Below are positions 588-64,000 of a stretch of DNA of 64,000 nt, piece after piece. The stretch is from Tubiluchus corallicola (Eukaryota > Animalia > Priapulida), in contig JAQGDQ010000319.1 of assembly GCA_030141605.1 (NCBI GenBank), forward strand, positions 186,001 through 250,000. Direction: 5' to 3'. Position 1 is the stretch's first letter, and every line of letters begins with the position of its first letter. The notes under the pieces are model-generated. The model made no database searches and had not been told where the DNA came from. It saw nothing but the letters and a program-made list of their open reading frames with translations. A program made the position numbers and the translations under genes.

Positions 588-1108
588 TTGCAGCCCCTGC
601 TGTTGTAATAGTAACAGTTTTAACAGCTAGCTAGAACCTTACCTAGTTTATTTTTTCTTGTTCCCAAGCAAGATCGTGCTAGTAAATCACTCTATGCACA
701 GACTAATGCATAATTAAGCAAAGTCCGGGTAAAACAACTGAAGTTACGGAATTAAACGGCTTTGCTTTACCCACATGTCACGTGACGCTTGTAGGTAAGA
801 TGCGTTGCTGTGGTACACTTAACCTTTGACCTACAGCAACTGTGCATGCGCACAACAGAACTGTGAAAAGGCTTATTTCAAAAGTGTTCGGTTCCCCAAC
901 ATCGAAAAGGAAGTACTCGTATTCCTACTGAAATGATCATTCAACAATCAGTAATTGATCTCAGTCACGATAAAAAAATCAATAACCAATCAGCTTCTAG
1001 ATCTAGGTGTAGGTTAAGAAAACAAGGTACTACTGGTGTCTTCCAAAAACTAGGAATTCTGCGTATCTGCACAAAATTCTCATCACTGTTAGTTACTGCT
1101 GCACATAC

Positions 1109-1227
1109 CTGAATCTTGTCCAATTCTTGTAAAAGTTCTGCAGACTGTGGTCCGGGAATGGCAGTCTTCATGGATGGACGTTCCGGCTCTGCTGGACAGA
1201 AGCTTTGTGTAGCAGCATGTCTGGACA
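1109..1227 (-). CDS. ABAT: 4-aminobutyrate aminotransferase (GABA-T)-like, N-terminal coding exon; gene continues off the left edge
   Basis: Translation SRHAATQSFCPAEPERPSMKTAIPGPQSAELLQELDKIQ resembles the GABA-T N-terminal 'EPxGPxMKTxxPGPxSxELxxxL..IQ' segment; acceptor ttttctag and donor CAG|gtatgt. Start exon not resolved. Confidence 0.8.
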
Positions 1228-18900: not shown

Positions 18901-21900
18901 TCCTAGGCTGCAGTCTATACTAGCCTTCAGGCCTCGCAAAACGTCAAGTTCCCTCAGTCCTAGGCTGCAGTCTATACTAGCCTTCAGGCCTCGCGGTCAA
19001 GTTCCCTCAGTCCTAGACTGCAGTCTATACTAGCCTTCAGGCCTCGCAAAACATCAAGTTCCCTCAGTCCTAGACTGCAGCCTATACTAGCCTTCAGGCC
19101 TCGCAAAACGTCAAGTTCCCTCAGTCCTAGACTGCAGCCTATACTAGCCTTCAGGCCTCGCGAAACGTCAAGTTCCCTCAGTCCCAGACTGCAGCCTATA
19201 CTAGCCTTCAGGCCTCGCGGTCAAGTTCCGTCGGTCCTAGACTGCAGCCTATACTAGCCTTCAGGCCTCGCGAAACGTCAAGTTCCCTCAGTCCCAGACT
19301 GCAGCCTATACTAGCCTTCAGGCCTCGCAAAACATCAAGTTCCCTCAGTCCCAGACTGCAGCCTATACTAGCCTTCAGGCCTCGCGAAACGTCAAGTTCC
19401 CTCAGTCCTAGGCTGCAGTCTATACTAGCCTTCAGGCCTCGCAAAACGTCAAGTTCCCTCAGTCCTAGGCTGCAGTCTATACTAGCCTTCAGGCCTCGCA
19501 AAACGTCAAGTTCCCTCAGTCCTAGACTGCAGTCTATACTAGCCTTCAGGCCTCGCAAAACGTCAAGTTCCCTCAGTCCTAGGCTGCAGTCTATACTAGC
19601 CTTCAGGCCTCGCAAAACAGCACGTTCCTTCGGTCCTAGACTGCAGTCTATACTAGCCTTCAGGCCTCGCAAAACACCACGTTCCTTCGGTCCTAGACTG
19701 CAGTCTATACTAGCCTTCAGGCCTCATGAAACGTCAAGTTCCCTCAGTCCTAGGCTGCAGCCTATACTAGCCTTCATGCTAATCTGGCTCGGCTCACGTG
19801 TTGCTATTAGCGTCAAGAAAACTACAAGAAATTGCTTACGATAAAAATAAGAAGTAGATGCAATAGATGTCTACCTGACATATGGATTGTGTAAATCCAA
19901 CCACTCCAAATTTCGTTGCACTGTAAGCGCTTACTGATGGTAGGGCAGAACAAAGACCTAAAATTTAAATGTATGTTGTGCAATCCGATGATTACTTTAA
20001 CATTTTAACTGCACAGCAAATTGTAGAGAACTATGGGGCAAATTTGCGTTATTGTACTATTTTATATAATATAATACACTGCGTTACATACTATAATATT
20101 ATGAAAAATATTTCTTTTTCTGACTTCCAGAATTTCACGTGTCAATGTTGATTTTACCATCTTTGCCTGAACGCACATAGCTGTACTGACACGCTAATGT
20201 CTTGCAAGTTTGGGCTTGATATTCATTTTCCATCTACATTACCGAACCACAATAACAGAGTCAACCTGCGGATCCTTCCCTTTTAGGTATAAAGGCACAT
20301 GCTAGGTTTGCTTAATTTAATTTAATTTTAACACACGTGATTAATGACGAGCATTATATTATTATAGAACTCATTGATAGAATTGCTAAAGTGAGTCTTT
20401 CCATTTTAGGTATAAAGCCACATGCTAGGTTTGCTTAATTTAATTTAATTTTAACACGTGATTAATGGCAAGCATTATATTATTGTAGAACTCATTGATA
20501 GAATTGCTAAAGTGAAAGTCTTTTTGCACACTTGCTTACCTACGACTGAAGCTGTGTTAACGACCACCCCGCCATGTTCTCTCATGTAATCAAACGCTAG
20601 TTGAGTTCCTGCTATTACTGACGTCTGAATAGAAACACAGATTAAAAGTTCATAATTATTAAACAAAAATACTACGTAGGCCTATCAAACATGAACAAAA
20701 TCAATATCAGTCATTGACTTTCACGATTTGGTCATCTGAACGAAACAATTTCTGTTTGGGAGTCAGTTAGTTTGTAGATTTTAGAGCGTAAGGAGTGGAG
20801 TCAGTACCATGTGACCTTTTCTCATACTACATACACACAAGCTTGAGTGGGACCTCAGTAGTGTAAATTACTCTGTGACGTGCTCTTATCTATGGTTTAC
20901 ATTTTAATGTTTGTGATCACTAAGGTTTCCCCTCATTGTTTAAAGCGGGCCAACCACGAGGCAGCAGTCTTTGTGAATAAACATATTAATAAGCAAGAAA
21001 GATTTATGTTAAATGTTCTATAAAGTTTCTAACAATGTAACTAATGTAGTCGAGACGTTACATACTCAAGTTCATACTCCGCCGCTGAAATTTCGGAGCA
21101 AAAAAAGATAAAAACTCACCAGGTTAATGTCAATCATTCGTTTGTAGTCTATTTCATCTACAATTCCAGCTGTACACGAAACGATATCCAATCTACCAAA
21201 CACTTCAAGTGTTCTTTGAAAAGCAGCCTTTAGTTCTGATTCATTGGTTACGTCAGTTCTGATGAATGTGGCTCTTCCTGTGCCAAATCTTGTGCAAAGT
21301 TGTGAGGCTGTTTCCTTTCCTACTTCGACTTTAACATCAAGAATAGCAACACCCTGTGCTTAGAAATATAATCACTTGTACTGCTAAAGAAAAATTTAGC
21401 TATCATAAAATTATAATTGTAGAATGTAGCTATAATGAAGTATCTGACATGGTAAATATAGTATGATAAATGTGGTGATGCAGTACCCTAGCTAACAAAT
21501 CATAGATACGATTACGATGGTACATACTTTTGATACCTATCACGTTAAATTGCACACTGTTATAGGTGGTGCTCTCAGATAAATGATCACTACTTTGGGG
21601 TTGCAGGAGAGATAAAGGAATTTCTAAACTTGATTTAATATAATCATGTACTTTCAACTTGCGTTTTCCGTAAAGCAGCAAAGCTTTGAAACGCAAATTC
21701 TTATGCAAAAGTTAACTAAAATTTGATCTTTCCTGATAGAAAATTATGCACGAAAAATGAATTTTAAAATGTTTTATCATATGTACGTAATTAGAATTTA
21801 AAAACAAATAAAAGAAAACTATGAAAAAATAACAGCATAATTTTGGCTTCAATATTTTAGACAATAAATTTTACTAATCCAGAGAAGCTAAGTACACATT

Positions 21901-25885: not shown

Positions 25886-26105
25886 TACAGAAAAATAAGA
25901 AGAAAAATAGTACAAATTACCAAAAAATAAAAATAATTGAATAAAGTTACATACATAAATGAGAGCAAAAGAATGCAGTTTTTGGGGACAACAAAAAATC
26001 ATCCGTAATAATATGAAGCCTCCATATTTGTATTCTGTCTATAACTAGACAATTTTGGTAAATACGTTCTTGAAAATTTTATTGATATGGTAATTTATAC
26101 TATAG

Positions 26106-26474
26106 ATTCTCCAGAAACTGCCAAAACTCGTCATATAAGAGCGGCACTTATAGATGGTAATATGGTAATCAATCTAACTTTCTGCATACCTGATGACTAC
26201 GAAGACGTGGTATGGACCATTCCAGGGGACAAGCAAATTGTATTTACTCATTATAGTACGTATGATACGTATGGTGATCGTGTTAAAGGTAGCATTGAAC
26301 CGACGACTTCACTGGGAGCTTTAATAAAGTGTCACTTTACAGAACTGATCATTGAATCACCAACATCAGCAGACAGTGGAAACTATTCGTTGCAGGTGTC
26401 TACATTCAAATATTTTGAAAGTTATAGAAAATACATCAATGTTGGAAAACTCTTTACGACTACCAGTGAACCAG
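26106..26474 (+). CDS. immunoglobulin-like (V-set-like) domain exon; flanking exons not identified
   Basis: 369-bp phase 1/1 exon (tatag| ... CCAG|gtacgt); C-strand 'VVW', 'LIIESPTSADSGNYSLQV' with the D-x-G-x-Y motif. Confidence 0.6.
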
Positions 26475-26494
26475 GTACGTTTCGTATATTATCA

Positions 26495-26541
<47 letters not shown>

Positions 26542-27160
26542 CTATTACTATCACTAATTGTGTTACTGTTGCTACTACTATTGCTATAGCTAGTAAATTT
26601 ATTAAAAGTATAAGTACCTTTAATCCTTGTTATTGTTATGTTATATTATATTGTGATATTATTGTTATTGAGTTATTGTTACGCAAGATGGAGGTCTACA
26701 AATAAAATGTGTAAAAATTAAGAGGGTCAAGTTTTATTTCATTTTCTTGTACTGGCATTGTCTGACTATTTAATTTACAAAATTTATTCCTGATAGCATT
26801 GATGATGCCTCAGGAAAGTGCAAGTAGAACTGCATTTCCATGCAATCACAGAGTCTTGTCTGCTCTGTTATTAGCTTCAGCGCATCAGAACCAGGACGCG
26901 CTGAAATGCAGCCTCTACCCATATTGATAGTTTTGTTATTGACAAAGAGAACTTCAAAATATAGTTTTGGTATAAATATAAGAAAATCACAACACACTCA
27001 TTGCAGTTTCAAAAAATCAAATTCTATGGAAACAGTCCGATGTTACTGCGCATTAGAATCCATTTCTTCGCTGTCTTACGTCAAAACATAAAAAAGTGTT
27101 GTTCTTATATGTTTCACAAAATAGTTCACAACATTGATGTTTCGTTGTTATTATTACACC

Positions 27161-29047: not shown

Positions 29048-29869
29048 TTACAACATGACACTGTGGAGTACTAGAAGACTAAGTTGTATCAATAGCCTGC
29101 AGACAGGTACTGATAATGTGGCTGTGTCAGGACATGTGGGGGTAGTAGAAACTGGTCGATCAGTAGGATCCGCCAGATTTTTGAAAAATACTGGATACTT
29201 GTCAGGACTTAACCAAGGAATTTCAACAGACGTAATTTCCTCTGGATTGTCTTCATCTTCTTTGAAGTACAGTACTGCATCGGTCCTCAGCGTGCTGTGA
29301 GTCAGGTGCCAAAATCGACCATAAAAGCTCAAAAAGAAGGCATCCTTCTCCGAATCGAGCGGGTCGAGATAGCCAGTGCCCAGACCCATTTCGAAGTGCA
29401 GCGAGTCCATTGTAGCATTGTACGAAATATGGACCGTTCCTCCGAAATGGTGTTTGTACTCGCCGACGTAATCTTCAAGAGACCTCAATGAGGTTCTTGC
29501 AGTTTTCGAGTTTTGAGGCATTTCTTTAAAATTGGATTCTTCGTCGAGTCCTTGCTTCCAAGCTTCCGGAAATGGAAATGAGCAGGCAGTGGTGTTATCC
29601 AGCCACGGATCAAGTTCCAGCAAGATATCTGCAGCAGAGAAGGCAGCAAGTTGCAGTGCAAGGATGTTTTGGGCATCGGTTGGACCGTTATTACTGATGA
29701 AGACACCAGCATTTACATCTGGAAGAACCAACATCTCTGCATTGTAACCAGTCAGTGCACCATCATGGTATAAACCACGAAAACCTGAATGAAAAATTTA
29801 GTACAGTGTTCCGTATTCATATTTCTCGTTTCAGTATCTATCTATTATATTAATATTCTTGGTATGTTT

Positions 29870-29928
<59 letters not shown>

Positions 29929-32900
29929 GATTCGAGGCTACAGCCCGGACGAGGGCACCATTTGCGGCCATCTATACATCAAACGAAAGGTCTCGATCTA
30001 GTGTCGTCTCATTGGGGGTTTATTTTTCGAGTGGGGCCCACCGAGAGGAACGGGGGGCAAAAAACCTCCAAAAATGGCCATTTTTCGGCCGTTTTTTGCA
30101 AAAGTTATACGGCTGAGATGTGGAGAACGGGAATGGGCCGAGGAGGGTGCTGGGTATGGATAGATAGCCCGTTCAGCGGTGGGTGTCATAGGGATATATA
30201 TTTAGAATTCGCGATAGGGCCACGGCGTCCCGCAACGGGCGTTTTCCCGGACCCAACTCGCGATTTTTTCGAAATTTTGACCAAACAGCCTGCGGAAAAA
30301 ATGTTCTAGCGGCGCCTGGTGGGACTCCTGTTATATATTAATGCCAGAACGAGTGCACGTATATTCATTTTTTAAAGCAAACTTGTTCGGAAAGAAGAAA
30401 ATGTCAGGATTGAATCAAGAACTTTTGCATTACAAGTGTTAGTGCTGTGATCACTAGACTATACAGTAGGGTTGAGCATTCTCTACCAGAAAGTGAATTC
30501 GAATCGAACCGAATTTGTGACTTTCAAATTCGAATCGAACCGAACTTCAGTGTTTCGAATTCGAACCGAATTCGAATTGAGATTGAAAGATTTTCGAACA
30601 AGTTTTCGAACCACCAGTAAAAATTAGTCTTACAAAGATCATGCCTATCACTAGATTTTGTTCTGCAATAAGACGAATAGTAATTTCTTTAAAATTGTGC
30701 ACAGAAATCACTTCTAAATTAAGCTAATTGCATGATGTTTCAATCGTTTTAATGATGAAGAACATATGTGATTGAAGTACTGAATTATTCGAATCTATAG
30801 TCTTGGATTCGAATCGAGTTCGAAATAAAAAAAACTCGTTCGAATCGAATTCGAACGTTCGATGCTCACGCTTACTATACAGACCTGTTATACTCATTAA
30901 GCAACTTACTTTAGTAATATTATAACAGTCGTTTTACAATGCATCTTACAGTATATAATATGATACGAACACTAGTGTCCTATAGACATTGTGAATATTT
31001 GCAGACCAATGGCTTCACGTTTGAGGAGAAGCCCAGGTGTTAGTGATGCCAGACAGCTGCTAATAAAAGACCGAGGGACGCACAAAGCGGGATAGATAGT
31101 TTGGGAAACGTTTCTATAAAATAATTATACTGGGATTTCATTTACCATATGGAATTTTAATATTACTGTTGTTATGTATTAGAGCGCGGGACTACTTTGT
31201 GATGTTTACGATAGACGTAATGGGCATATGATGATGATTATTGCTTTGCTGCTTTTCCATTGTCTTTTTTCATTAGCATTGTTTGTGGAATGTCTTGTTA
31301 AGTTCATTAAGGCCCGTTGCTAATGACGACGACGGATCATTAATGCTCTGTTATTCTCACGATTACGCCTGCATTTTGATTAATGTCCAGTGTATTCCGT
31401 TGTGTTCGTGTTAATAATTTCTTTTTCATTTGCAAATAAACGCTTTCCCCCGCACGTGTAAGCCTATTATCACGCAAAAATCATTAAAATAATTTTGAAT
31501 TGAACTGAAGGCTTGGTATTTACCTCTGTAGGTGGCGCTGTAAAATCCAAGTCCATACCCCACCGTAGTTATTGTCACCGGAATTTTTGGCTGTCCAACA
31601 AACCAATTATACTGCTGGTGTTCCCTGTGCAGCTGTTGAAACAGTTCAGCTGAAACCATTTCACTGCCATCTTCCGGGTTCGTTCCGTTTCCTAATTGGA
31701 ACATCAGCCATTGCGCCATTTCAGTTGGTTTAACACAAAGCCCGCCAGCTGGCTCTGCTGGATGAACAATCCTGAAAACGCAGCATTATGACCGATAGAA
31801 TAGAAATGTTAATCTCATTAGTGGCTAAACAAAAATGACAGTGTAATAACAGTAAACTTAATAAGTCCTGACTGAATGAAGCCAATAGCAAAGATTTACA
31901 AGAGATGTCGCCAGTAATTACATTAAAAAGTCGATTACCTTTGGCTTTGACTTTTGAAATTGGTTCACATTAAATTTTAAAACAAAACACGAAACAAATT
32001 TCACAAATCTGAATTTGAATTATTATTTGCCTTACTCAACCACAATTTTGTCTACTCTAGCAAAGCCTTCATCCAATACAAAAGCGTGTGGCTTGGCTAT
32101 TGTGTCCCATTCTTCTGGATGCAGATCTGGCGACATAAATACGGCTGATTTCATATGCAGTGGATCCAGTAAGTTCTCTTTTACAAGCTCTTCATAGGTT
32201 TTGCCAGAACCATCTATAATTTCTGCTGCTCGACCCGCAAGAGCGTAATAGTAATTGTTGTAAGAGAACTCTGTTCGAAGAGGTACGACTTCCTCTAAGA
32301 ACTGCAGACGACTGAAACAGATTCATTGCATATTAACTGAAGACAACTCACAAAATTTCTGATAAATTTCTTTTTTTAGGTTTCTGAGGGGTATTTAGAA
32401 GATTCTTCTCGAAAAGTGCTTGCCGTATATCAGGTCCCCGTGCAAGTACTTCGTATCACTGTTGCCTCTTAATGTGTTTAAAAAACGTTTCTGTATTTGG
32501 AGCAGTTGAATATAACTACAACTTGCTCAATATATAACATGTTTAAACAAGTCACGCAACAACGATAAACTTCGTTCAGCATCCCATTGTTAATCTGACA
32601 AACGCGAACTCTGCAAAAAAAATTGTGGTTAAGCTGACAACGACAACTGTTAACACAACCATACTACGTTATAATCATAATTCATGATAATAATAATTTA
32701 CTCGCTTCAAATCTATTAAATGCTGTAGGGGTTTATAGTCAAAAATAGATAAAAAGTGTGAGTAAGAATGCATCATAATGAACTTAAAAATTATACACTT
32801 TACTAAAAACAAAAGAGCATAGTTAAATAATACCTATAATATAAATCTACAGAAAAAATGTAGGATATAATGGAAATCCAGTTTAAATTAATTTAATTAT

Positions 32901-35808
32901 GTAATTACAGTTTAAAGTTTTTTCAATTAAAAAGGTTTTGAGCGTATAACTGTTGCCTCTTAATGTGTTTAAAAAACGTTTCTGTATTTTGAGCAGTGTT
33001 GTTTGTAGTTTCACTGGGCATTTTTGTTGAATTATGGCAACAAATCACATGCTTAAGAATTTGTAAATAATATAAACAATATAAACACATTTTAGTTAAA
33101 AATGCGGTTATGTTTTAACATGGAAAAATCTTGCTACCACGGATTTTTAATTTAAATTTTCAAAGGATATTTTTAAGGGCCTTTATTCAATTGGGAGCTT
33201 GTCTTGAGGTCACTTTTTCAACTTAAGTTAATAATTTTTTTCACGAACCAAAACTGAAAAACGGAGTGTATACAGAAAACAGATGAGTGTAACACAAAAA
33301 AAAACGTCAAAAGTGCAAAACATAATCTCAAAATGAGATCATTTGATAAAGCGGCATACTCTAGCAATGCACTTCGAGACATCTCAATGAATTCCCCTAT
33401 TCTTCTTGGTCCATCAAACCTTTGAGAACCCATTCGTTGAGCAAGCAAATCTTGAAGCATACCATATTCAGTGCGCAGTTCATCATGTAAATTGAAATCA
33501 TTTCCTAAGATGTCTTGTATCCGACTGTTAAAACTGAACTGCCTGTAAAGAGAATTCGTGGCAAACTGTTAGATAATACTGTAACCGCATCCACTGACAA
33601 ATTTTGAAATTTAATGAAGGTAGGATCATTTTATGATTACACTGGATCAACAAGGTTTGAAAATTACACCATATAAAACTGTTCAAGCTATCTAATTTTT
33701 CGCATACGTATAGTTATTTAAATATATTTTGAGCTGCGTGTTAACACTTACAAGTATTTATTAAGTACATAACTTTTCATCTTCTTACTCTTAAATCAAT
33801 TTCAGAGCAACTTGTATAAGTTTTATCAACTGCAGTAGTGCGATCTTACTTTATTTTCAACATAGAAAAGTCACTATTGATTCTCAAATAAAAACAGGGC
33901 AATAAAACAAATGAAGATGTTCTTCTTTAAAAAAAATTCTCCTGCTTCTCACGGTCTTACCTTGGACATTCCTACATGCGCAATTAAAAGTTGTTGTTGG
34001 TATCCTTCTATCTCGGAAGACAATGGACTGTGCACCAAGAGAGTCAGTTATTGATCACATTAATCGAGCTGCAGCGTCGACTGTGGCTGAGCAATCCGAT
34101 TCTTGAACCACTGGAGTGGCCTTTCCAGGGCGCACGCTTGGGCAAGGTGTATGGAGATCCGGAGTTGCCCAGACAACAGGAACCCCCTCTCTTCCTCCCT
34201 GGTGTAGTCCAAAGGAAAGCATTTGGCACTAGGTTGGCTGCAGGAGCTGCCGGAATCAGTGAGCATGCTGCACGGGTCCGCCTTCGGGGCTCCACTCCTG
34301 ATTTGGAAGGTTTACTCCTCTACACATGGCCGTTGGGTCACTTGACCTCCTCCGCCCTCTTGTGCAGCTCCTCCGCCTAGTGTCGAGATACATTGTGGGC
34401 ATCCCGCAAGCCTACAGTATCTGGTATTCCTAGGCGGTCACCCATCCATGTACTGACCAGGCTCTACGTTGCTTAGCTTCGGTGATCAGACGAGAACCGG
34501 TGTTTTCAACGTGATGTGGCCGTAGAATTAACAGTTCTTATAAATAAATTCAGTTTTTTCTTTGAGCTACTTGTAATTAGAATTCTCTACAAAGAAAGTG
34601 TTGCCCTGAAAACTACCACCTCGTGTAGAAGAAGAAGAAGAAGAATAGATGTCTTCTATTTTGGGTTTCTATCACTAGCAACTTAATTAGAATAATTCTA
34701 TTTTTAAATCCTATTCATATTTTCATATTTTTTTGGAATTGTTCCTATTTTCAACTTTCTGTCATGGCGTCTCACCCCGAGTGACCTTTGACCTTGTTTG
34801 AAAAAATTGTAACACTTACGGATTTTTTGTTAGCACAGCAGCCAGCAAAGTTGACGTGAATGTCTTAGTGACAGAAGCAATGCAGAATCGGTGATCTACA
34901 GTCAGTTCTTCCTGCGTTTCTATGTCTGCAACTCCATAAGTTTTATTATAAACGATCTCATTGTCTTTTACCATCACTATGCTCACGCCAGGACCAAAGT
35001 GCAGACATTCCATAAGCTGAAAGTAGAACGAAAATATCCTAACAGAAGATGGCGCTGGTAATAAATTGTAAAAATCTGATAATCAGAGACTGAGGTAACT
35101 TGGCACTGGGAAATATATAGTACTTCGAAGACTTAATTAGTAGAAGTCTGACACAAAGGCGAATGATCTCTACTACTTGAAAGATTTAATTGGCATAGAA
35201 AACTGACTCAAATGTGAAGCATATGTATACTATTTGAGAACTTATTCAATAGAAAAATTACACAAAGATTCATACAACTTTGACGACGTAATTAGTAGAA
35301 GTCTTATATAAAGGCAAATGATCGGAATTGCTTTGACAATCTAGTTTGTGTGCTCTGTCGAAATTTTACTATTAATAATTACTTGACGTAGACGCGAACG
35401 GTATATACTACTTTGGTGGCAGAAAGTGGGACAAATGAGGGTCATCTATACTACTCTGTGCGTAGGCTTTGTTGTAATTTTAGTTTGAATAGTAGTTGAC
35501 ATTGAAGCAAACGATATATACTACTCTAATGCCTTGCTAACACGAAAGTGTATGATTCGTACTACTCTGGTAGACAAAGTACGTAATGTGTTGAAATCAT
35601 TGTAAGAGAATTACAAAAGTAAAATACGACCCATGGTTACTTTCATAGCAGTAAGTAACTCTAGGTAACAAACATGACAAACAAAACTTACAGAATGGAT
35701 CAAATCATCCAGCCATGACGTCTTTTCTTCACTAAGTGGCTCCGTTACCGCAGAGCAAAGAAGAACCAGACTCACAACAGAAATTGCAAACCGAACTTTT
35801 TTCTCCAT
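29048..35808 (-). CDS. secreted beta-lactamase/penicillin-binding-protein-like serine hydrolase, 585 aa, 6 exons, possibly GPI-anchored
   Basis: Exons 35808-35692, 35016-34820, 33542-33360, 32311-32036, 31771-31524, 29784-29048 (1758 nt, phases consistent). Signal peptide; PGVSIVMVK..YGVAD; SxxK (IASVTKTF); YxN (FSYNNYYY); LDPLHM; PAGGL; YGLGF; HxG (YHDGALTGY); hydrophobic C-terminal tail. Confidence 0.9.
29866..29924. repeat. (TA)n(GA)n compound microsatellite followed by a ~400-bp GC-rich unclassified insertion (to ~30335)
   Basis: Direct observation; abrupt rise in GC content within an AT-rich intron. Confidence 0.7.
30467..30874. mobile_element. hAT (Ac-like) MITE
   Basis: Perfect 8-bp TSD CTATACAG (30459-30466 and 30875-30882); termini TAGGGTTGAGCAT ... 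ATGCTCACGCTTA; subterminal TTCGAA/ATCGAA repeats. Confidence 0.85.
33993..34525 (-). mobile_element. 5S rRNA-derived SINE (SINE3-type), near full-length copy in hydrolase intron 2
   Basis: 5S head reads through with no T-run terminator into a ~415-bp body homologous to 48014-48443; (CAA)n tail; 11-bp TSD AATTAAAAGTT / AATTAACAGTT (1 mismatch). Confidence 0.85.
34408..34525 (-). rRNA. 5S rRNA-derived sequence (SINE head, probably not a functional rRNA gene)
   Basis: CTACGGCCACATCACGTTGAAAACACCGGTTCTCGTCTGATCACCGAAGCTAAGC...TGGATGGGTGACCGCCTAGGAATACC...GTAGGCTT matches the metazoan 5S consensus including A and C boxes. Confidence 0.85.
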
Positions 35809-44417: not shown

Positions 44418-46384
44418 ATGTTGAACGACTTTGCAGCATTCCTTCTATTGTCTGTGATTAACGCAGCAGTAGCAGCACCAACAGCACCTGCAACTACAAC
44501 AATCATAGAAAGACCCATTCCTCTTTGGTATCAGCTGGGAGTCCCTTTTCATCTCACTCAGTTTACGGGAGCTGATTATCGTCGAGGTCACTTTTACGAT
44601 CCAACGAAGCCATTGAAAGTGGAGGTGGATTCCGGTCCAAAACAACCACCGTACATTGGAGGAAACTTTGGACTTGATCCACTTGGAAAGGTTTACAATC
44701 CATATAACTCACCTCCACTATCGTATGGAGCAGGAAAAGGCGTCAGTCTTGCCGACTTTGCCGGTTTTGGACGCCCGGGTATTGGAGATTTATTTCAAGG
44801 TAAGACAACATACGAAAAGGTGCTTGTCACGGTATTACGTAATATCGTTTAATAATTTATTAAAACGATGTGAATTACATGCTGTTGTTGTAATACTATA
44901 ATGCAGTGTATCCCAAACTTTCTCGGACCGTTACCCAAATCGGGAAACCCGGTCGTGTCCGTTACCCCCCACCTAGTACTACTTCTCCAACTCAAAAAGT
45001 AAACACACGTATATGCCACATGTGATGGAATGATGGACCCCATGACACAGTGTTGCCTGCCGGAGGCAGTCTCTTCAAGAAGAAAACTACGTAAAATGCA
45101 TTCCGAGCGAAGTTTTAAAAATTAACGGTGCCCGTTACCCCCCCCCCCTAAAAAAACCATATTACCCCCGGGGGTAATTTACCCCTACTTTGGGAACCAC
45201 TGCTATAATGTGACAACTTTTCTCAAATTAACTGGCAATTAACGACATCCCTAATTAAATTAATGACTGAACGTTAATAAACTTTTGCGGTTTATTTTGC
45301 AAAAACTGTTACCCATTACGGGTAATGAGTTGAAGAAAGAAAAACGCTGAAAAAACTGTGAACCAGTCGGGATTCCTAGGCCTAATCATAGGTCTCGGGT
45401 TCAAATACCGACTGGTTTACAATTTTTCAACGTCTCGTCTCTTGTTTCAACTCATTACCAGCAATGGGTAAAAATGTTGAAAATAAATTGCAATGGCTCA
45501 TCAAAATTCTCGCATTTACAGTTATAATCTAATTAGTGATAAAAATCTGTGGTAAATAATCCATATATTTATAACCAATGATGGAAATCACTTGACATTA
45601 AATTCTGTTTTTTATCTCTTGTAAGATAGTATAACTGTACTACATTTAAACTCCAGAACATCAAATATGTTTAATATGCAGCAATTGTCGTTTTATCTGT
45701 AATAATAAATTACAGCAATAAGTTTTTAGCGAAAAACATAAGTTTGATAAAGGTACATTACTAAATTAGGTAACGTGATTTTCGTCTATAATTATACAAA
45801 AAAATAACAGCGAAATTGTTCTAATAGCATAAAGCAGTTCAGTAAACATAATTTGACACTTACATGTGGTCTCCCTGAGTTTTGGCACTTATAACTTGCA
45901 AAAAAAACAATAGAAATCAACTACAACATTCACATCGTATCAATTGAATTGCATGTCAGGTAATGTCTACCTGGCCAACTACCTGGTCACATGACTGATG
46001 ACAGTTAAAGGGGCAAGACCAAATTTACCAGGTAGGGAAACGGGCATGCACATAACAATAACTTACTTTAGAACAGACCTTTTTATCATTACTTTGTAGA
46101 AAATTCAAATTAAATTGGAACTTTGTTTTGTTATCCAAAATTTAAGCTTTTATTTTTTCACAGATTCCAACTGCAAACTGCCGTGTCAAAATGGCGGATT
46201 CTGCAACGACTATGATCTAGTTCAAGTTTGCGTCTGTCCGCTCAATTTTGGTGGAATTCTTTGCGAGATCAACAAAGATGTCGGCTACGGTGTCGAGTCT
46301 GCAGTGGGTCCTCTGAGGGTGGTTGCAGAAGCAGCGGTTGGAGGCGGTTGGAGGAGAGGACGTAGAAGTGGAAGGAGGGGTTAA
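44418..46384 (+). CDS. small secreted protein, 200 aa: signal peptide, Pro/Gly/Tyr-rich region, one EGF-like domain, Arg/Gly basic tail
   Basis: Exons 44418-44799 (CAAG|gtaaga) and 46164-46384 (ttcacag|), phase 1; EGF pattern C-KLPC-QNGGFC-(8)-CVC-PLNFGGILC-E; AATAAA at 46406-46411. Confidence 0.8.
44904..45202 (+). mobile_element. hAT (Charlie-like) MITE, copy 1
   Basis: TIRs CAGTGTATCCCAAA ... TTTGGGAACCACTG; perfect 8-bp TSD CTATAATG. Confidence 0.9.
45285..45494. repeat. ~210-bp imperfect palindrome with a tRNA B-box-like centre
   Basis: ~90-bp arms (TTACCCATTACGGGTAATGAGTTGAA...AACCAGTCGG versus CCGACTGGTT...TTCAACTCATTACCAGCAATGGGTAA); GGTTCAAATACC at the centre. Confidence 0.75.
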
Positions 46385-47577: not shown

Positions 47578-47916
47578 GCGCAAAGTTTCATGGAAATCGG
47601 TTCAGTAACTAATTTTTGCTAACGAAAAGAAAAACAAAACGAACAAACAAACAGACAAACAAACGACGATGAGAAAACATAACTTTAGGGGAGCTAAAAA
47701 TTAGAAATAATTTCATAGCCCCTGAAACTCATAACAAACGTTTACAGAATTTTAACTAGTTATTTTATTCACACATTTTCTCTGTTGGTGTAAAAATTGT
47801 TTTAGATGAAATAAATTTGTGTACTTTATATACGTTTAGCTTTAGATACACTTGATATATAAGAATCTCAAACTGCTTTTAACTTTTGGCACACCTTTTA
47901 ATTTTGTAACTAAACC

Positions 47917-48013
47917 AACGCCGGTTCTCGCCTGATCACCGAAGTTAAGCAACGCAGAGCCCGGTTAGTACTTGGATGGGTGACCGGCTAGGAATACCAG
48001 GTGCTGTAGGCTT
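47917..48013 (+). rRNA. truncated 5S rRNA-derived sequence (SINE head)
   Basis: CCGGTTCTCGCCTGATCACCGAAGTTAAGCAACGCAGAGCCCGGTTAGTACTTGGATGGGTGACCGGCTAGGAATACCAGGTGCTGTAGGCTT. Confidence 0.8.
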
Positions 48014-48443
48014 GCGGGATGCCCACACTGTATCTCGACACTAGGCGGAGGAGCTGTACAAGCAGCCAACGGCTAGAGGGCGGAGGAGGTCAAGTGACCC
48101 AACAGCCATGTGTAGAGGAGTAAACCTTCCAAATCGGGAGTGGAGCCCCGAAAGCGGACCAGTGCAGCATGCTCACTCACTCCTGCAGGCAATCTGGTGC
48201 CAAACGTATCGCTCCGCTTTCCAATGGACTACACCAGGGAGGAAGAGAGGGGGTTCCTGTTGTCTGGGCAACTCAGGATCTCCATACACTTTGCCCAGGC
48301 GTGCGCCCTGGAGACGTTCAAGGATCGGACAGCTCAGCCACAGTCGACGCTGCAGCTCCATCAATGTGATCAATAACTGACTCTCTTGGCGCACACTCCA
48401 CTGTCTTCTGAGACAGAAGGATGCCAACCAACCAAACCAACCA
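47917..48443 (+). mobile_element. 5S rRNA-derived SINE, 5'-truncated copy, immediately past the sGC stop codon
   Basis: 5S head lacking ~20 5' nt, body homologous to 33993-34407, (CCAA)n tail. Confidence 0.85.
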
Positions 48444-48474: not shown

Positions 48475-50066
48475 CTACAAAATCATACAAGTAACACTAT
48501 TCTTTTTTAATCTACCTCTAACGCTCTGTCTGGTGTGATTTTTGACTGGCAAGCATCCAAACCCTTTCACAATACCAACTTGAACAGGTTTGGCATTATT
48601 TGCATTCGAGTTAGTAGTGTTATTCTTGGATGAATTGTCTGTGGTTGTGATCTTCTCTCGAGCAGTAGCGCCTAGCGAGTGATTAGCGCATTCACCGCCA
48701 GATGGCTTCTCGTCTATATGGCTGTCCGATGCGTTGCTGGGTGGACGGGATATGTGAGGTGCTAGGCGGCACCCCGTCGTGCTGTATTGACGTAAAATAA
48801 CGGAATCACCCTCTACAACTATGGCGTCCATTGGCAGGGGGGGCTGAAAAATATAGATATCATCACAGTGTTGACTTTTGGTTAAAGGTCCTATCACACT
48901 ATTTTTTATGTTATTTTCTATTATAGCATAGGCGGAGTTATATGTTTCCTAATTTTTAAAACAGTTTTGATGTATGCTTTCATGTGATATGGTAAGTTAA
49001 ATTAAGCGTTGGTACAGTCGCAAATATTGTCACCCGCCATGACACTCAGCACTGTGACGTCACGTAAGTACCACTGCACTCTTCCTACATATAAATACAG
49101 CGAGAGTCACACATGCGCAGTGCCATTCCTAACGGGACGTCACTTCCTCTTTCTTCCTCGATTTTTCGTTTTTCGCAAGATGTCTGTACTACGCTGAATT
49201 TGAAGTGTTTCAATGCTAATCAAAGCGAAACGAGCAAGTTTAGATAAAAATGTTATAAAAAAACAAGAAATAATTACATTTTGAAAAAATATTTTAGCCG
49301 CTTTTGCTTTTTTCTTTATCATTTAAACACTAATATGATTAGGGGAACGATGACCGCCTCATATTAGATTAATAATTCTTACCACGTCAGCTAAGGTAGC
49401 GCCTCCTGGACTTTTATTTCGTGCCGTATCTGATGACCTTGAAGAAGCTGAATCCACTCGCAGAAGCTGTCCTTGCTCTTCTATGAAACTTATTTCTGGT
49501 TTCTGAAAATCCTGCTTTGTAACAAAGAAGCATTCAATAGACGGGGGTACCGACTTGGGATTTGCCTCAAACGTGTATCCGTTCAACTGTAGACATCTGT
49601 AAATTAAACGCGTCTACAAAAATGATTTGCTAACAATTCAAGATATTTTTAATTTTAAACAGACATCGACCCCATTGTACAGTCAAAATTGATTGCAAGA
49701 AACAATTTTATGTTACCGTTTAATTAAGAATAGCCTTATTATTTGATAAAAATAAAAATGTCAAACAAAAGATTAAAATAAAAAGTTGGCTACATTATAC
49801 TCGATTAAATTTAAATATGGTTGTACTGTAGATGTAAACGAAAATGTAAAATTAAAGGTTAAGAACTCATTTAAAGATTATGTTTTAAGATATCTATTAT
49901 AGCTCCTTACAACACTGTATACAGTAAAATAATTACAAGGGAACTACAATGTGTGGTTGTTATAAAGTTGAATGTCTGTAGATATGTTACTTTACTAACA
50001 TCGCATTACCTGTTTTACTAACATCTTTATCTTTGTAAACTGTATATTTCTATACGAAATAAACTC

Positions 50067-50103
<37 letters not shown>

Positions 50104-50119
50104 TAATAATAATATTATT

Positions 50120-50215
<96 letters not shown>

Positions 50216-53200
50216 GAAAATGATGATGATGATGACGATGACGATGACAATAATAATAATAATAATTAATACCTGCGACAATCAGCACTAATGTTGACCC
50301 GCATCGGCAAGCTGTTCTCTTCCACTTTGTTTGCTATGGTTCTCGCGTGACCAAAGAGGCAATATTTTGGCATGTTGAGACCAACTATTCCAGCTGCTAC
50401 GGAACCGGAATGAATACCGACTCGTAACTACAGAAAGGCATAGAAAGGTAATAGTTTTATTATTATCTTTAAAAACACACTTACAGGTTTGCTTGTAATT
50501 GTAAGGGTCTAATAAAGTTAATAACAATGAAAACCAGGAGACAGTTTCGTTAAAGGAAAACCGGATGATGTGTAAACATGAGTTCAGAATAAAAAATGCT
50601 CTAAAATATTGAAAACTACAATAGCTTATTTTAAATCAAAGCTTAGATTAAATAATGATTACCTCGGATACTCAAATTTCGTTAAACTTTCAAAGCTACG
50701 CGCAGCTCAGTGAATCTACTAAGACTGGCAACGGCGCCTTTTTTGTCACATTCGCGTGGCTGACAAATAGAAGGCGATACCGTTATACCGTTTATAACCA
50801 TGATTATGAACTGCAGTGTTAGTTTCTGACGTCATATGACGTAGAGTCCATTTTCGTGACATCATGCGTTTAAGCAGTACTGTAACACTCACGCAAACGT
50901 GCTTGACGCGCAAGGGGAGATGCCTACCATTGCACAAACTGTGGTTAGCTTCTGACGTAAGCAATAACTGTGTTCGGTTGCCGTTAATTAACCTTCTAAG
51001 CTAATTATTCAAATATAAGGAACAATTGTTAACTTTTTTAGGCAAGAAAACGTATATTTTGCACAGTAAATTAAAATGAGATTGAGTCTAAACAATCCTC
51101 CGGTCTTCCGTTAAGTTAGAGACTTGGTTATTGCGGGTTTAGTGACAAATTCATCGAAACATTTAAAACCTAGTTGCAGTTTTTATTAGCATCAACCACA
51201 TTTTATATACGAACAAAGTTACATCGTGCCCTGAACAGCCAATGAGAGTGTTGGAAAAGTAAGCAAAACAAACACAAACACATGAAAACAAACACATAGA
51301 CACACGATGCTGGAACTACGCTGTTCGATTTTTTTAAAGTGAGTAGACGATTGTATGAGTGATCGTACTTGAATGTATGAGTGATCGTACTTGAATGTAT
51401 GAGTGATCGTACTTGAATGTATGAGTCATCGTACTGGAATGTATGAGTCATCGTACTTGAATGTATGAGTCATCGTACTTGAATGTATGAGTGATCGTAC
51501 TTGAATGTATGAGTCATCGTACTTGAATGTATGAGTCATCGTACTTGAATGTATGAGTGATCGTACTTGAATGTATGAGTGATCGTACTTGAATGTATGA
51601 GTCATCGTACTTGAATGTATGAGTAATCGTACTTGAATGGAGTTTTCATCAACAGGCGATAATATTTCACTACACGCAGCCACCATCCCCATTCCTAGTG
51701 AAACACTCTGGTCAGCGTGAGTTTCTGTGGTCATCACTAATCCAGCCACCGCCATGTATGCGTCTCCAATCGTTTCTACCTAAACAAGTTTATGTTTCGG
51801 TTTAAACATAATTTATTGAAGGTGTAACATCTAGGTTCGAAACAGACAGTTTTACAACTGATATATGTTTTTCCCTAGTGGGAGCGAAATGCTAGACAGA
51901 TGCAGAACAATGGTGACCACAATGTACGAGAAATATTGCAATAAATATGATCATTACTATGTAACAAGAGTAACAAAGTCAATACTATTTAAAGCACTTA
52001 GTGTTTGAAATAAAAGACTGCAGTAAAACAAAAATTTGAGTGTTCACATAGTTATCTAGGGCATGGTTCACATGCAGGAACAAACGTACAAGTTCATTTG
52101 TTGCAAGACTGTAAACATTGAAAGCAGAGATTTGTAAATAAGTCGTGTCTGACCTGGTGATGAAGTTTATGTTTTCAGCGATGTTGATACTTAAATCTTA
52201 AACTAAACAATTGACAATTGAGATAACCATACACAGAAATACATATTTTCAAATATGTATTTGAACCAGCTTTTAATTTGTTTTAGTGCAAAAACGCGTT
52301 TTCCGGATGGCTGGGTGATTGAAAATGAATTTAAATTGATTAAAAGCATTAATTAGCTACCTTGTAGAGATCGTTGATTTGGCAGAGTGTGTCGAAGTAG
52401 ACATACATTTTGTTCAGCAGCACCACAATGTCTATTGGCTTCACGCTCTCAGAACTACACATCGCCGTGAAGCCAACAATGTCAGAAAACAGAATCGTCA
52501 CAAGTTCAAACTGATCCGGCTCGACGACGCTATGGGCCAACAGTTTCCCCACGACAGGAGACGGCAGAATTTGCTGAAGCAAAGCCTCGGTGCGAAGTTT
52601 CTCGAACTCCAACTGACCACTAAGAATCCTCAATTCGTTGTTGGCTTCTTCCAAGCGTTCCATGATCTGTCTATCCATCCTTCTGTCGTGGCTGATCAGA
52701 AGCAAATCTCTTACCTTGTCGTGTAGAGGAAAGTCGCTCAGATGAAGCCCATTTCTAAGGAGTTCATCAAGAGAATTCATGCGAGGAGAGCAAAGAAACA
52801 GGACGCAGTCTACCTCCTTGAGGAAGACCATTTCTCCCTTGAGACGAAGAAACGTCCGATTCGACGGCGCGTCTTGGTTACCTGTTTCTTGTGACTGAAA
52901 GCAACATTTTTTTAGCTCGACAACAAAAACAGCATGACTGTGCATAATCATGGACTCAAACATGCCGTCTGAACGTGGTCGAACTATGGTACAGACTTCT
53001 GAGAACAAGACACGCTTTAAGGACTCCCGAGATCCCACAATGAGACGGCTGAAATAAGTCCCAGCTTGAATTATTTCCATATTACGATTGACAATGAAAG
53101 AGAAAGGGAAGATTTGGTTGAACACGTTGATATTCAGACACAGATCTTTAGGATCACTTGTGGGAAAGGCTATAGAAGGCCCGATAGATTGGAGTAGACT

Positions 53201-54358
53201 AGAAGACTTCTCGTCAGATGAGTTTGGCAATAACGAGGCTTCTCTTTTTGAGGAAGATGCATTTTTGTCTGACTGTTCTTGCTGGATTCGAAACACTACG
53301 TGGTTTTCAAATTGCGACAGATCAGGCACCACGGATATGGAAACGGTTTGATGAAAGAAAGCATCCGCCACGTATTTAACCATTCCCGTAACGATGGGAT
53401 GTAGTCCTTTTCTGGAACTAAAATAATGAAGAAGAAGAGATCCGTCTTGATCTTCATCACACCTGGAGAAATGAAAAAGAGAAAGCCCTTAATAATTAAT
53501 TTACTTTAGTGCAAAGTGATTAAGAAAATGTTATCAATGCTGCTGCCATTGTCATTGCCATGACCGACATCAACACCACCTCCTCCACCACTGTCAATGT
53601 CAACGCCAACACCACTATCACTACTACTACTACGCCTCTGCCGCTGACACCACCACTGTGACCGCCAGCCGCTGGCACCACTGCCACCACTGCCACTCTC
53701 GCCACTAGAACCACCAGCATTAACATGAACATAACTGACACAAATACTCCCGCAACCATAATCATCAACATCACCCTCAAGTACACAACCGCCAACACAC
53801 CATCATAACCATCGCCAGCGCCATGGTCGACCATCACCATCATCAGCACCAACACCACAACCACCAACACGATCATCACCAACACGGCCACCGCCACCAC
53901 CAGAGATTGTGAACAAAAAATTTTATTTGCCGTATCTAACTTATACCCCAACAAAGTGACGCAAAAGGTTAGATAAAAATGCGTGGAGTTTGTGCAGATC
54001 AAAATTAAGCGCGCAAAGTTGTGGTTTATGGTACGGTTTGTGAAATGACAAAAGTAAATAGTGTGTCAAGAAGAAAGTGTTTAACCTGAATGATGGAGCA
54101 CGCATCATTGAATACTGACTCTCCAAATGATCGTGTAGGGCGTCTAAATTGTTAAGGAAGTCCTTCAGATTTCCACTAAGAACTCGCAGTATTCGATCAT
54201 AACCCATCTCTATGCAGTAGGGAACAAAGTGTTTCCCGAACGCTTCCAGAGTTACTTCTAATGGGATGTCTGGAAGACGAATTTAAGTTTGTTCACAATA
54301 ATACAACAAGTAGCAACCGTTTTATAGTTTTGATTTTCATATTACTATACTGCTGTTG

Positions 54359-54443
<85 letters not shown>

Positions 54444-55084
54444 CACTACTACTACTACTACTACTATTAGAATGTTTTTATAACATTCACAGGGACCAAA
54501 TACGATGATATCAAATACGGCCATTTTGATTTTGATAATTACCGTGGCTTATTAGAACAAGCTCTTGTGCTTACCTGGCTAGGTACAAAGCAACCACTTG
54601 GCTATTTATTGTGCGCTCGGTGGATATAAAAAAAATCTGAATTTCACTCACCTGTTACTTCAGCTGTTGCCACAACAAACTGCATTGTTACTGAGTCGTC
54701 ATACTTTCTGTGTAAAAGAAACGTCCCACCTTGCAATTCTATGCCACATTTTTTCCTAGAACAAGATCAAGCAAACTACTTCTGTAAAAAAATAACTAAA
54801 AAGACTGGCATCTTGTACAAAAGTGCTGACCAGTGGTCACAAAAGTGGCTTACACATTTTACTGTCTCCTGTGAAGTCCTGACTAACGACTTTGCCCTGC
54901 TCTGTCTATAATGGTGTTTCAAAGCACATTCTCAGGTAATGATACCAAAAAATTATATTTAATATGTAAACATTTAACATATCATATTCAGTTTAGTTAT
55001 TATAACTTACAAAATTAAATTCAGAGCTTCTTCTCCGAAGTTTTTCCCCACCATGGATGCTAGACAGCCGTGTATGAATCCATA
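48475..55084 (-). CDS. soluble guanylyl cyclase subunit (H-NOX, PAS/HNOBA, coiled coil, cyclase, CaaX), ~783 aa; ATG exon lies upstream, not located
   Basis: Exons 55084-55011, 54755-54652, 54269-54086, 53462-52361, 51779-51633, 50427-50273, 49596-49383, 48843-48475, all GT-AG and phase-consistent. Motifs [97 protein letters not shown]; ends CMIL*. Confidence 0.92.
50068..50270. repeat. (AAT)n/(GAT)n microsatellite abutting an sGC donor site
   Basis: Direct observation. Confidence 0.95.
50550..51098 (+). mobile_element. dispersed ~550-bp repeat with a Kolobok-like TTAA|AGG start, copy 1
   Basis: High similarity to 62926-63467; both begin TTAAAGGAAAA. Confidence 0.75.
51352..51638. repeat. 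22-bp minisatellite, ~13 copies, overlapping an sGC splice donor
   Basis: Unit GTATGAGTGATCGTACTTGAAT; on the minus strand nearly every copy contains ATTCAA|GTACGA. Confidence 0.92.
54359..54467. repeat. (CTA)n microsatellite
   Basis: Direct observation. Confidence 0.95.
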
Positions 55085-62560: not shown

Positions 62561-62925
62561 TAATAGTTTGGGCTGTTTGCCATTTCTAAAGACTTGCTAT
62601 TCGTTACACAACCTTCCATATTTATAATCATTAATAACATCTACTAACCTGCAATTATATTCCCACAGAATGTGTATTTTTGAAGTTTAATTTTATCCTG
62701 GCTTTAGAAGCCGTGGATCGATAATGCCAGATGTTTTGTGTTAAAAACTTTGTGTGGATCACCATAGCTAAGCCTTATTGTCAAATACTCAAAAATAGGT
62801 AACTCACTCACTCACTCACTCACTCACTCAACTCACTCACTCACTCACTCACTCACTCACTCGGATTCTATAATGTAGTGAGAAGTCCTTTCCCAACCAC
62901 ATGACGTAAGTAAGACGTCATTGAT

Positions 62926-63467
62926 TTAAAGGAAAATGAGACGATTGTGTAAACATTAGTTCAGAATAAAGAATACTCTAAAATATTGAAAACTACAATA
63001 GCTTTTATTAAATCAAAGCTTAGATTAAATAATAATTACCTCGGATACTCAAATTTCGTTTTAAACTTTCAAAGCTACGCGCGGCTCAGTGAATCTACTA
63101 AGATTGGCAATGGCGCCTTTTTGTCACGTGCGCGTGGCCGACAAATAGAAGGTGGTACCGTGATAACCATGATCATGAACTGCAGTCTTAGTTTCTGACG
63201 TCATATGACGTGGAGCCCATTTTCGTGACATCATGCGTTTAAGCATTACTGTAACACGTATGCAAATGTGCTTGACGCGCAAGGGAAGACGCCTGCCATT
63301 GCACAAACTGTGGTTAGTTCCCTGACGTAAGCAACAGCTGTGTTCGGTTGCCGTTAATTAACTTTCTAAACTAATTATTCAAATATAAGAAACAATTGCT
63401 AACTTTTATGGGCAAGAAAATGTATATCTTTGACAGTAAATTAAAATGAGATTGAGTCTAAACAATC
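62926..63467 (+). mobile_element. dispersed ~550-bp repeat, copy 2
   Basis: Homologous to 50550-51098. Confidence 0.75.
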
Positions 63468-64000
63468 GTCAGCTTTTTCTTGAAGAGTCAGTCACACACC
63501 CAATCCGGTGGTGGCTTCAGAGGCTGCAGAACTCATCATCCTTGTTGTCAGGCTTGTATATATGCTACGCCTGTTATATTTTATTAATAAACCGCATTGT
63601 TATTACTTACATCAACGTCAGGGTTACTTCAATCACTGACATCAACATCACTGCAATCGTGAAGTAATTAGTTTCGGTGCCCGCATTAAACACTGGGTAG
63701 AAATGAACGGTGTTAAATCCTTGCCAATTAATTACTGTCACTATCCAATTCATTAGGGCGTGCAGACACAGCTGACGGAAATATTAGGAAGAGACTTCTG
63801 TTCTTCTCTTCCGATACGTCAAATTTTAATGTGACAGGTGGATGGTCAGCTTATTTAGAAGAAAACAATCTGATTAGAATTTCATCAAATTGGGCGTGAA
63901 ATATACTAATCTGATATCGTGTATTAAATATTTGGCCAAATATTCTTGAAAACGACGTATTCAAAAAGAAAATGTCAATATTTAAGCAGCTCTCTAGCAA

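Follow-up and report, generated by a model that had tools for sequence, protein, structure and literature searches.

In the textbook nitric oxide (NO) receptor, the soluble guanylyl cyclase (sGC) built from an alpha and a beta1 subunit, each dimer carries one haem. Catalysis relies on Asp486 and Asp530 of alpha together with Asn548 and Arg552 of beta, and the choice of gas by the H-NOX domain follows an Ile145-versus-Tyr rule. Among the atypical sGCs, Gyc-89D requires Gyc-88E. The contribution of catalytic residues by both subunits is set out in PMC8196705 (here and below, papers are cited for the passages concerned), where the signal relay of beta1 is assigned to Asp102, Asp106, His107, Arg258, Arg305 and Lys307, the alpha residues Glu417 and Gln418 are described as latching the alphaF helix of beta1 in the resting state, and an N-terminal extension of alpha is described as blocking the alpha haem pocket. 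In known dimers the H-NOX domain at the alpha position is flexible, and regulation does not require it (PMC6839917, PMC8196705); its haem-less state is termed 'an enigma' in review (PMC8196705). A distal tyrosine stabilises O2 in a bacterial H-NOX, and the C. elegans sGCs retain the haem histidine, GCY-35 and GCY-36 being alpha/beta-like heterodimers (PMC1435932); this pair is a precedent for histidine-retaining alpha/beta-like partners, in the O2-sensing branch. Here we describe an intron-containing sGC-type gene of the priapulid Tubiluchus corallicola, located at 55084-48475 on the minus strand of a 64,000-nucleotide stretch of contig JAQGDQ010000319.1 (assembly GCA_030141605.1, positions 186,001 to 250,000 of the forward strand; hereafter the window).

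On balance we lean towards the view that this gene encodes a haem-retaining sGC subunit of an ancient lineage, likely sister to alpha, which would be inactive alone and likely takes the alpha position beside beta1 in a two-haem, NO-selective heterodimer. Judged by sequence comparison, the gene is one member of a conserved clade and no oddity peculiar to the Tubiluchus genome. The splice model was derived from the DNA sequence, and residue numbers of the window protein assume one upstream methionine.

Domains and active-site residues of the predicted protein

The predicted chain unites H-NOX, PAS, coiled coil and class III cyclase, as expected of the sGC family, and Pfam searches on single exons returned HNOB, HNOBA and Guanylate_cyc in the correct order. 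A preliminary description, made from the DNA letters alone, had proposed a beta-type N-terminus characterised by YGFIH, Cys79, His106, YxSxR and Ile145. These motifs were recovered at the expected places (C79, H106, Y135, S137, R139 and I145), and exon 3 has a beta1 H-NOX as its best PDB sequence match (E 1e-16). It had further proposed that the protein holds the alpha half of the active site, with both metal-binding aspartates and with Thr and Lys in place of Asn and Arg, which agrees with D449, D495, T568 and K572 of the model, the last two occupying the sites of beta1 Asn548 and Arg552. Exon 6 matches best the alpha1 catalytic domain (E 9e-15, versus 1e-9 to 3e-7 for beta1 chains). On the minus strand the quoted motifs start at 55084 (YGFIH), 54150 (NLDALHDHL), 52489 (FSDIVGFT) and 51779 (VETIGDAY), two further cyclase motifs lie at 50424 and 50364, and MRAPSFRC straddles the exon 3/4 junction.

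With beta1 (GUCY1B1; PDB 6JT0_B, 5MNW) the window protein shares the complete haem-pocket set (His105, YxSxR, Ile145 and Cys78/Cys122 in beta1 numbering) and the H-NOX-to-PAS relay, here Asp103, Asp107, His108, Arg283, Arg328 and Lys330, residues that are partly lost in most alpha rows of our alignment. Unlike beta1, it has an aspartate at the first metal site, where beta1 has glycine, it lacks counterparts of Asn548 and Arg552, and it falls in a separate clade. Its likeness to canonical alpha (GUCY1A1/A2, Manduca alpha1; PDB 6JT0_A, 6PAS_A) covers the domain order, both metal aspartates without the Asn/Arg pair, the equivalent of Arg574, the Thr/Asn/Lys motif of the alpha4 helix and the preferred sister position; in Manduca alpha1 even the Lys and His around YCLFG are present. 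It departs from canonical alpha, whose H-NOX is a pseudo-domain, in that H106, Y135, S137 and R139 are all kept along with the beta-type relay, an N-terminal extension is not expected, Glu417 and Gln418 are replaced, and the clade is a separate one.

The atypical sGCs (beta2, Gyc-88E/MsGC-beta3, Gyc-89Da/Db and C. elegans GCY-31 to -37) resemble the window protein in the kept haem histidine, in CaaX tails (predicted for the window protein) and in that some form alpha/beta-like heterodimers (GCY-35/36). However, they occupy a different branch of the tree (as placed without Gyc-89D sequences), the Gyc-88E type is O2-sensing with Tyr145, and beta2 and Gyc-88E keep Asn and Arg, whereas the window protein has Ile145 and an active site that lacks both.

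Clade membership and phylogenetic position

Searches with the largest exon, the alignment of closest relatives and a Priapulus relative revealed a matching residue pattern in many animals, mostly under the label 'beta-1-like'. Named members of the resulting clade come from Placozoa H4, Nematostella, Montipora, Desmophyllum, Sanderia, Capitella, Tubulanus, Priapulus, Strigamia, Nymphon, several ticks and mites, and Branchiostoma. For residue counts 276 rows were aligned; 10 fused models (one restored as its N-half), the receptor-type rows P0022-P0075 and the matches from the Priapulus-relative search were excluded. A FastTree phylogeny of the 265 sufficiently covered rows delimits the clade as 75 rows (support 99), many of them near-identical tick rows.

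The haem-binding His, Tyr, Ser and Arg are jointly kept in 59 of the 63 clade rows with the H-NOX covered, and Tyr145 occurs in none of these 63. The first aspartate is present in 72/72 rows and the second in 52/53; Asn and Arg never occur together (0/42), Thr being found in 36 and Lys in 35 of these rows. For comparison, the full haem set is seen in 0/19 alpha rows and in 16/18 beta1 rows, the latter having Asn and Arg in 14/15 and the first aspartate in 0/22. At the positions of human alpha1 602/605/606 the clade and alpha have Thr/Asn/Lys in common, and beta1, beta2 and sponge-like rows read Asn/Ser/Arg. Many clade members start with MYGF and thus are without the alpha N-terminal extension that occludes the haem pocket. 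These counts also bear on whether the protein could be a weakly active homodimer, Thr and Lys functionally replacing Asn and Arg. Both aspartates, Glu491 and Cys561 are kept and Arg stands at the Lys572 site in 6/42 clade rows, but given the lack of any row with Asn and Arg together, and given that Thr/Asn/Lys is the pattern of alpha, an obligate heterodimer subunit, we regard such a homodimer as very unlikely.

The placozoan 'Soluble GCY-like 7' (PMC7400543 supplement 4) and the 'beta-1-like' proteins of Priapulus, Nematostella, Capitella, Strigamia, ticks, mites and Branchiostoma share clade and residue pattern with the window protein; the window copy is set apart by a predicted CaaX tail and by three substitutions of its own, both taken up below. 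A structure model of the Nematostella member (predicted local distance difference test, pLDDT, 81; predicted template-modelling score, pTM, 0.57) matches the human beta H-NOX (target TM 0.82) and a Nostoc H-NOX (0.93), and its predicted folds are normal, including the H-NOX geometry. In ticks the clade comprises two or more paralogues (among P0241, P0243, P0236, P0079 and P0255), one of which reads Cys where YYSxR has its second Tyr, and in some members from mites and ticks the Lys572 site is occupied by Arg. Vertebrates, insects, molluscs, echinoderms and nematodes are not represented among the named clade members; because the searches score part of the candidates, this does not establish absence.

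The main trees were computed from 50 hand-picked rows, Gyc-89D sequences not being among them. The combined PAS, coiled-coil and cyclase tree recovers the clade (100/96), within which the placozoan branches first, cnidarians next and then bilaterians, and places it as sister to alpha (92/92). The same position is obtained in a quick mixture-model tree (clade 98, sister to alpha 93), in a quick tree of whole proteins (98 and 91) and in the cyclase-only tree (clade 97/91, clade plus alpha 99/93). According to these phylogenies, the clade is a third, ancient lineage of the alpha/beta1 sGC group, separate from canonical alpha and beta1 and older than the placozoan/cnidarian/bilaterian split. Its sister is likely canonical alpha, a placement backed by the Thr/Asn/Lys triple shared with alpha and preferred over the beta1 side, albeit not proven.

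In each tree the window protein pairs with the Priapulus protein P0223 (99/90 for the H-NOX, 98/96 for the PAS/coiled coil, 99/90 for the cyclase and 100/99 combined), to which exon 4 is 43% identical. The approximately unbiased (AU) test rejected the window C-half inside alpha (p 0.00014) and the window H-NOX inside beta1 (p 0.005). It likewise rejected a grouping of the clade with beta2 (p 0.003) and the nesting of alpha among bilaterian clade members (p 0.016). The preliminary description had offered two origins for the gene. One, a domain-shuffled chimera, is ruled out as a recent event, since a single Priapulus protein groups with the window protein whichever domain is used (H-NOX, PAS/coiled coil or cyclase) and the AU test rejects both the H-NOX with beta1 and the C-half with alpha. 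The other, an ancestral-like alpha subunit that kept haem binding, fits the preferred tree as far as alpha likeness and kept haem residues go but does not stand as strict ancestry: as a member of a clade that occurs alongside canonical alpha in the same animals, the window gene is a paralogue of alpha and not the ancestral alpha in the strict sense.

Gene neighbourhoods in other animals add to this picture. The Trichoplax ids 005264, 005265, 005266 and 005267 correspond to GCY-like 7, 6, 4 and 5 (PMC7400543 supplement 4); one of these four belongs to the clade, one is alpha-like and two are beta-like. The clade member P0259 matches the H4 GCY-like 7 entry in length (715) and in the first 400 residues shown there, and by eye GCY-like 4 and 5 have a beta1-like look over the 400 residues shown for them. 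GCY-like 6 is similar to P0145, a protein grouping with alpha at a support of 100; in this placozoan alpha-like protein the proximal His is kept and YxSxR is lost, so that P0145/GCY-like 6 may represent an intermediate stage on the way to losing haem binding. In one mite gene model a clade member is fused to a canonical alpha, and contigs of identical size harbour a clade member and alpha in B. floridae and, likewise, a clade member and beta1 in Tubulanus. Together, the Trichoplax neighbours, the mite fusion and these contigs suggest an old tandem cluster. In placozoans, lancelets and mites the clade is found alongside canonical alpha.

Gene model and other features of the window

The eight exons (Table 1) join into 2349 bases, or 782 codons and one stop, with an AG acceptor at all eight exons and a GT donor at the first seven. 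The exon at 50427-50273 has the position and frame seen in homologues (tblastn). The predicted last exon, which resembles the tails of beta2/88E-type cyclases, is the least certain of the eight. Upstream of exon 1, the sole ATG directly followed by a GT(A/G) donor in the window is a weak candidate at 62765, and the Met exon is presumed. Contigs from one sequencing run of unknown kind, which contained 0.34 of the sequence words, cover parts of exon 4 and an intron repeat and bridge 0 exon junctions, and a second run contributed no matching contig, with no bearing on expression either way; one such contig differs from the window at 15 positions (8/6/1 on codon positions 3/1/2) in a variable linker, a comparison too weak to use.

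Table 1. Exons of the sGC-type gene and further features of the window (window coordinates)
Feature	Position	Strand	Content	Support or remark
Exon 1, after the presumed Met-only exon	55011..55084	-	Residues 2-26, H-NOX start YGFIH	AG/GT, phase 0 acceptor; weak HNOB match (profile 1-23)
Exon 2	54652..54755	-	H-NOX, residues 26-61	Splice sites, Pfam, tblastn
Exon 3	54086..54269	-	H-NOX with Cys79, Asp103, proximal His106, Asp107, His108, Pro119	HNOB E 2e-15; top PDB match beta1 H-NOX
Exon 4	52361..53462	-	Large exon with Y135-x-S137-x-R139, Ile145, PAS, coiled coil and cyclase start including Asp449	HNOB, HNOBA E 5e-46, Guanylate_cyc; P0001
Exon 5	51633..51779	-	Cyclase with Glu491 and Asp495	Splice sites, Pfam
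Exon 6	50273..50427	-	Cyclase with Arg540, Cys561 and alpha-type Thr568/Asn571/Lys572	Guanylate_cyc E 5e-15; top PDB match alpha1 catalytic domain
Exon 7	49383..49596	-	Cyclase end and tail start	AG/GT, in frame; Pfam without meaningful match
Exon 8 (predicted last exon)	48475..48843	-	Low-complexity tail, basic patch, CaaX-type CMIL, stop	In frame
5S-headed element	47902-48430	+	5S rRNA-like head and body of about 400 bases	Rfam RF00001, 57.8 bits
5S-headed element, second copy	33996-34504	-		84% identical
Dispersed 555-base repeat	50550-51100		Intron before exon 6	89% identical to the second copy
Dispersed 555-base repeat, second copy	62926-63470		Upstream of the gene	
High-copy repeat	~51800-52200		Intron	
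22-base minisatellite	51352-51639		13 copies	Starts at the exon 5 donor
Beta-lactamase-family gene	29051-35082	-	Multi-exon, metazoan serine-hydrolase type	PF00144; weak DUF3471 match
Short-chain dehydrogenase exon	21075-21359	-		
EGF-like exon	46100-46381	+		Weak
Aminotransferase-like N-terminal exon	968-1246	-		By eye; no Pfam match
Ig-like exon	26045-26554	+		By eye; no Pfam match

Several repeats accompany the gene. The minisatellite repeats the CAAGTACG junction, which yields many look-alike donor sites. The element with a head resembling 5S ribosomal RNA (rRNA) looks like a 5S-derived short interspersed element; it sits antisense, directly beyond the stop codon of the cyclase gene.

Possible partners, history and significance

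In the reading that we favour, the H-NOX would bind haem through His106 and YxSxR and, having Ile145, would take NO or carbon monoxide (CO) and not O2. The subunit would supply the metal-binding Asp449 and Asp495 as well as Arg540, and as a cyclase without Asn and Arg it would need a partner that brings these two. The exact complement is beta1, also a genomic neighbour in placozoans, and the pair would form one active site with two haems. With the beta-type relay kept, a connection from the haem to the coiled coil may exist, in which case the haem would not be a passive relic. The CaaX-type end on the predicted last exon (CMIL after a basic patch), which the preliminary description had overlooked, would anchor the dimer to membranes in T. 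corallicola. As to history, a complete homodimeric sGC would have duplicated into a beta1 line, in which the first aspartate was lost, and an alpha-type line, in which Asn/Ser/Arg changed to Thr/Asn/Lys. The alpha-type line would then have duplicated again, canonical alpha dropping haem binding and the copy represented by the window gene retaining it.

Several observations weigh against this pairing and this descent. The alpha latch Glu417/Gln418 is His380/Asp381 in the window protein (with His at the first latch site in 52 clade rows) and Asn replaces beta-Asp374, which means that a fit to beta1 with the tightness of alpha's cannot be taken for granted. A second haem at the alpha position might fail to signal, as the H-NOX placed there in known dimers is flexible and not needed for regulation. 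The window copy also has private residues near the alpha4 helix, Lys559, Arg567 and Glu575, each in 1/42 clade rows, and selection on the catalytic half may therefore be relaxed. Using tblastn on the window only, we found no other sGC gene, and hence no partner gene, within its 64 kb. With regard to descent, the PAS/coiled-coil tree recovers the clade (100/99) without resolving its sister, the H-NOX tree resolves neither the clade itself nor its sister, and the AU test leaves a grouping of the clade with beta1 standing in every domain (cyclase p 0.34, PAS/coiled coil 0.23, C-terminal region 0.24, H-NOX 0.12).

This last result is what speaks for an ancient origin on the beta1 side, either by recombination between a beta1 N-terminus and an alpha cyclase or as a beta1 sister converging on alpha-type residues. 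We nevertheless hold it to be highly improbable: the H-NOX features occur also in sponge-like complete cyclases and thus are simply ancestral, the starred beta1 clade of the H-NOX tree (99/95) excludes the clade rows, and a recent chimera is rejected both ways.

The altered latch residues speak for a catalytically complete partner of the beta2/Gyc-88E type instead of beta1, the window subunit then acting as a haem-carrying modifier of gas preference and of membrane location, in the manner of Gyc-89D with Gyc-88E and of GCY-36 with GCY-35. The predicted CaaX tail resembles those of the beta2/88E group, in which 58/78 rows end in C-x-x-x, and GCY-35/36 are cited as alpha/beta-like heterodimers of His-retaining subunits (PMC1435932). 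Such a partnership appears unlikely, though, given that the clade is distant from beta2 in the AU test, that the Trichoplax neighbours are alpha- and beta1-like genes, and that a C-x-x-x end is found in 1/74 other clade rows, many of which are fragments.

It would be more surprising still if the protein were a haem sensor or dominant-negative subunit that binds beta1 or alpha, makes little or no cyclic GMP (cGMP) and acts as an NO sink or brake. Consistent with that role, the genomes concerned also encode canonical alpha, hence no second alpha is required for activity, a dimer of two alpha-type subunits would be without Asn and Arg, and the residues around the alpha4 helix are unusual in the window copy. 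On the other hand, the near-invariant retention of both aspartates in the clade, over more than 550 million years, fits continued catalysis.

The pairing with beta1 can be extended to the animals at large, a reading that we hold to be less likely than not. Animals would ancestrally have possessed a third NO-receptor subunit, a haem-carrying sister of alpha whose gene stood in tandem with those of alpha and beta1. In its two-haem heterodimer with beta1 both sensors would be wired to the coiled coil, so that cGMP could be controlled cooperatively or by two gases (NO/CO). The subunit would survive in placozoans, cnidarians, some spiralians, priapulids, chelicerates (expanded in ticks), myriapods and lancelets, not being seen in vertebrates or insects, the groups in which sGC has been studied, as a living counterpart of the state that preceded the alpha pseudo-H-NOX.

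The preliminary description had conceded that the gene would lose its novelty if haem-competent alpha-type subunits were a described, common invertebrate clade. Common the clade is; described, as far as we could find, it is not, since no account of a haem-retaining sister clade of alpha appeared in the literature searched, a body that leaves most subscription papers outside its scope. The seven placozoan sGCs are said to 'cluster with alpha and beta' in PMC7400543, whose section and passages covered here contain no haem or catalytic residue analysis. A preprint (bioRxiv 10.64898/2026.09.15.751659) presents alpha and beta trees and mentions 'divergent lineages' in the beta tree; the words 'histidine' and 'H-NOX' are absent from its text passages, and its figures or supplements may already show the clade. 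The lineage is apparently undescribed and mislabelled in databases.

A conserved alpha-type subunit from nature whose haem site is intact would make it directly testable whether a haem in the alpha position can signal and by which route a complete homodimer became a one-haem heterodimer. Many invertebrate 'beta-1-like' labels, among them those of corals, ticks, mites and lancelets, are also wrong about which half of the enzyme is supplied, and this affects surveys of NO-receptor gain and loss.

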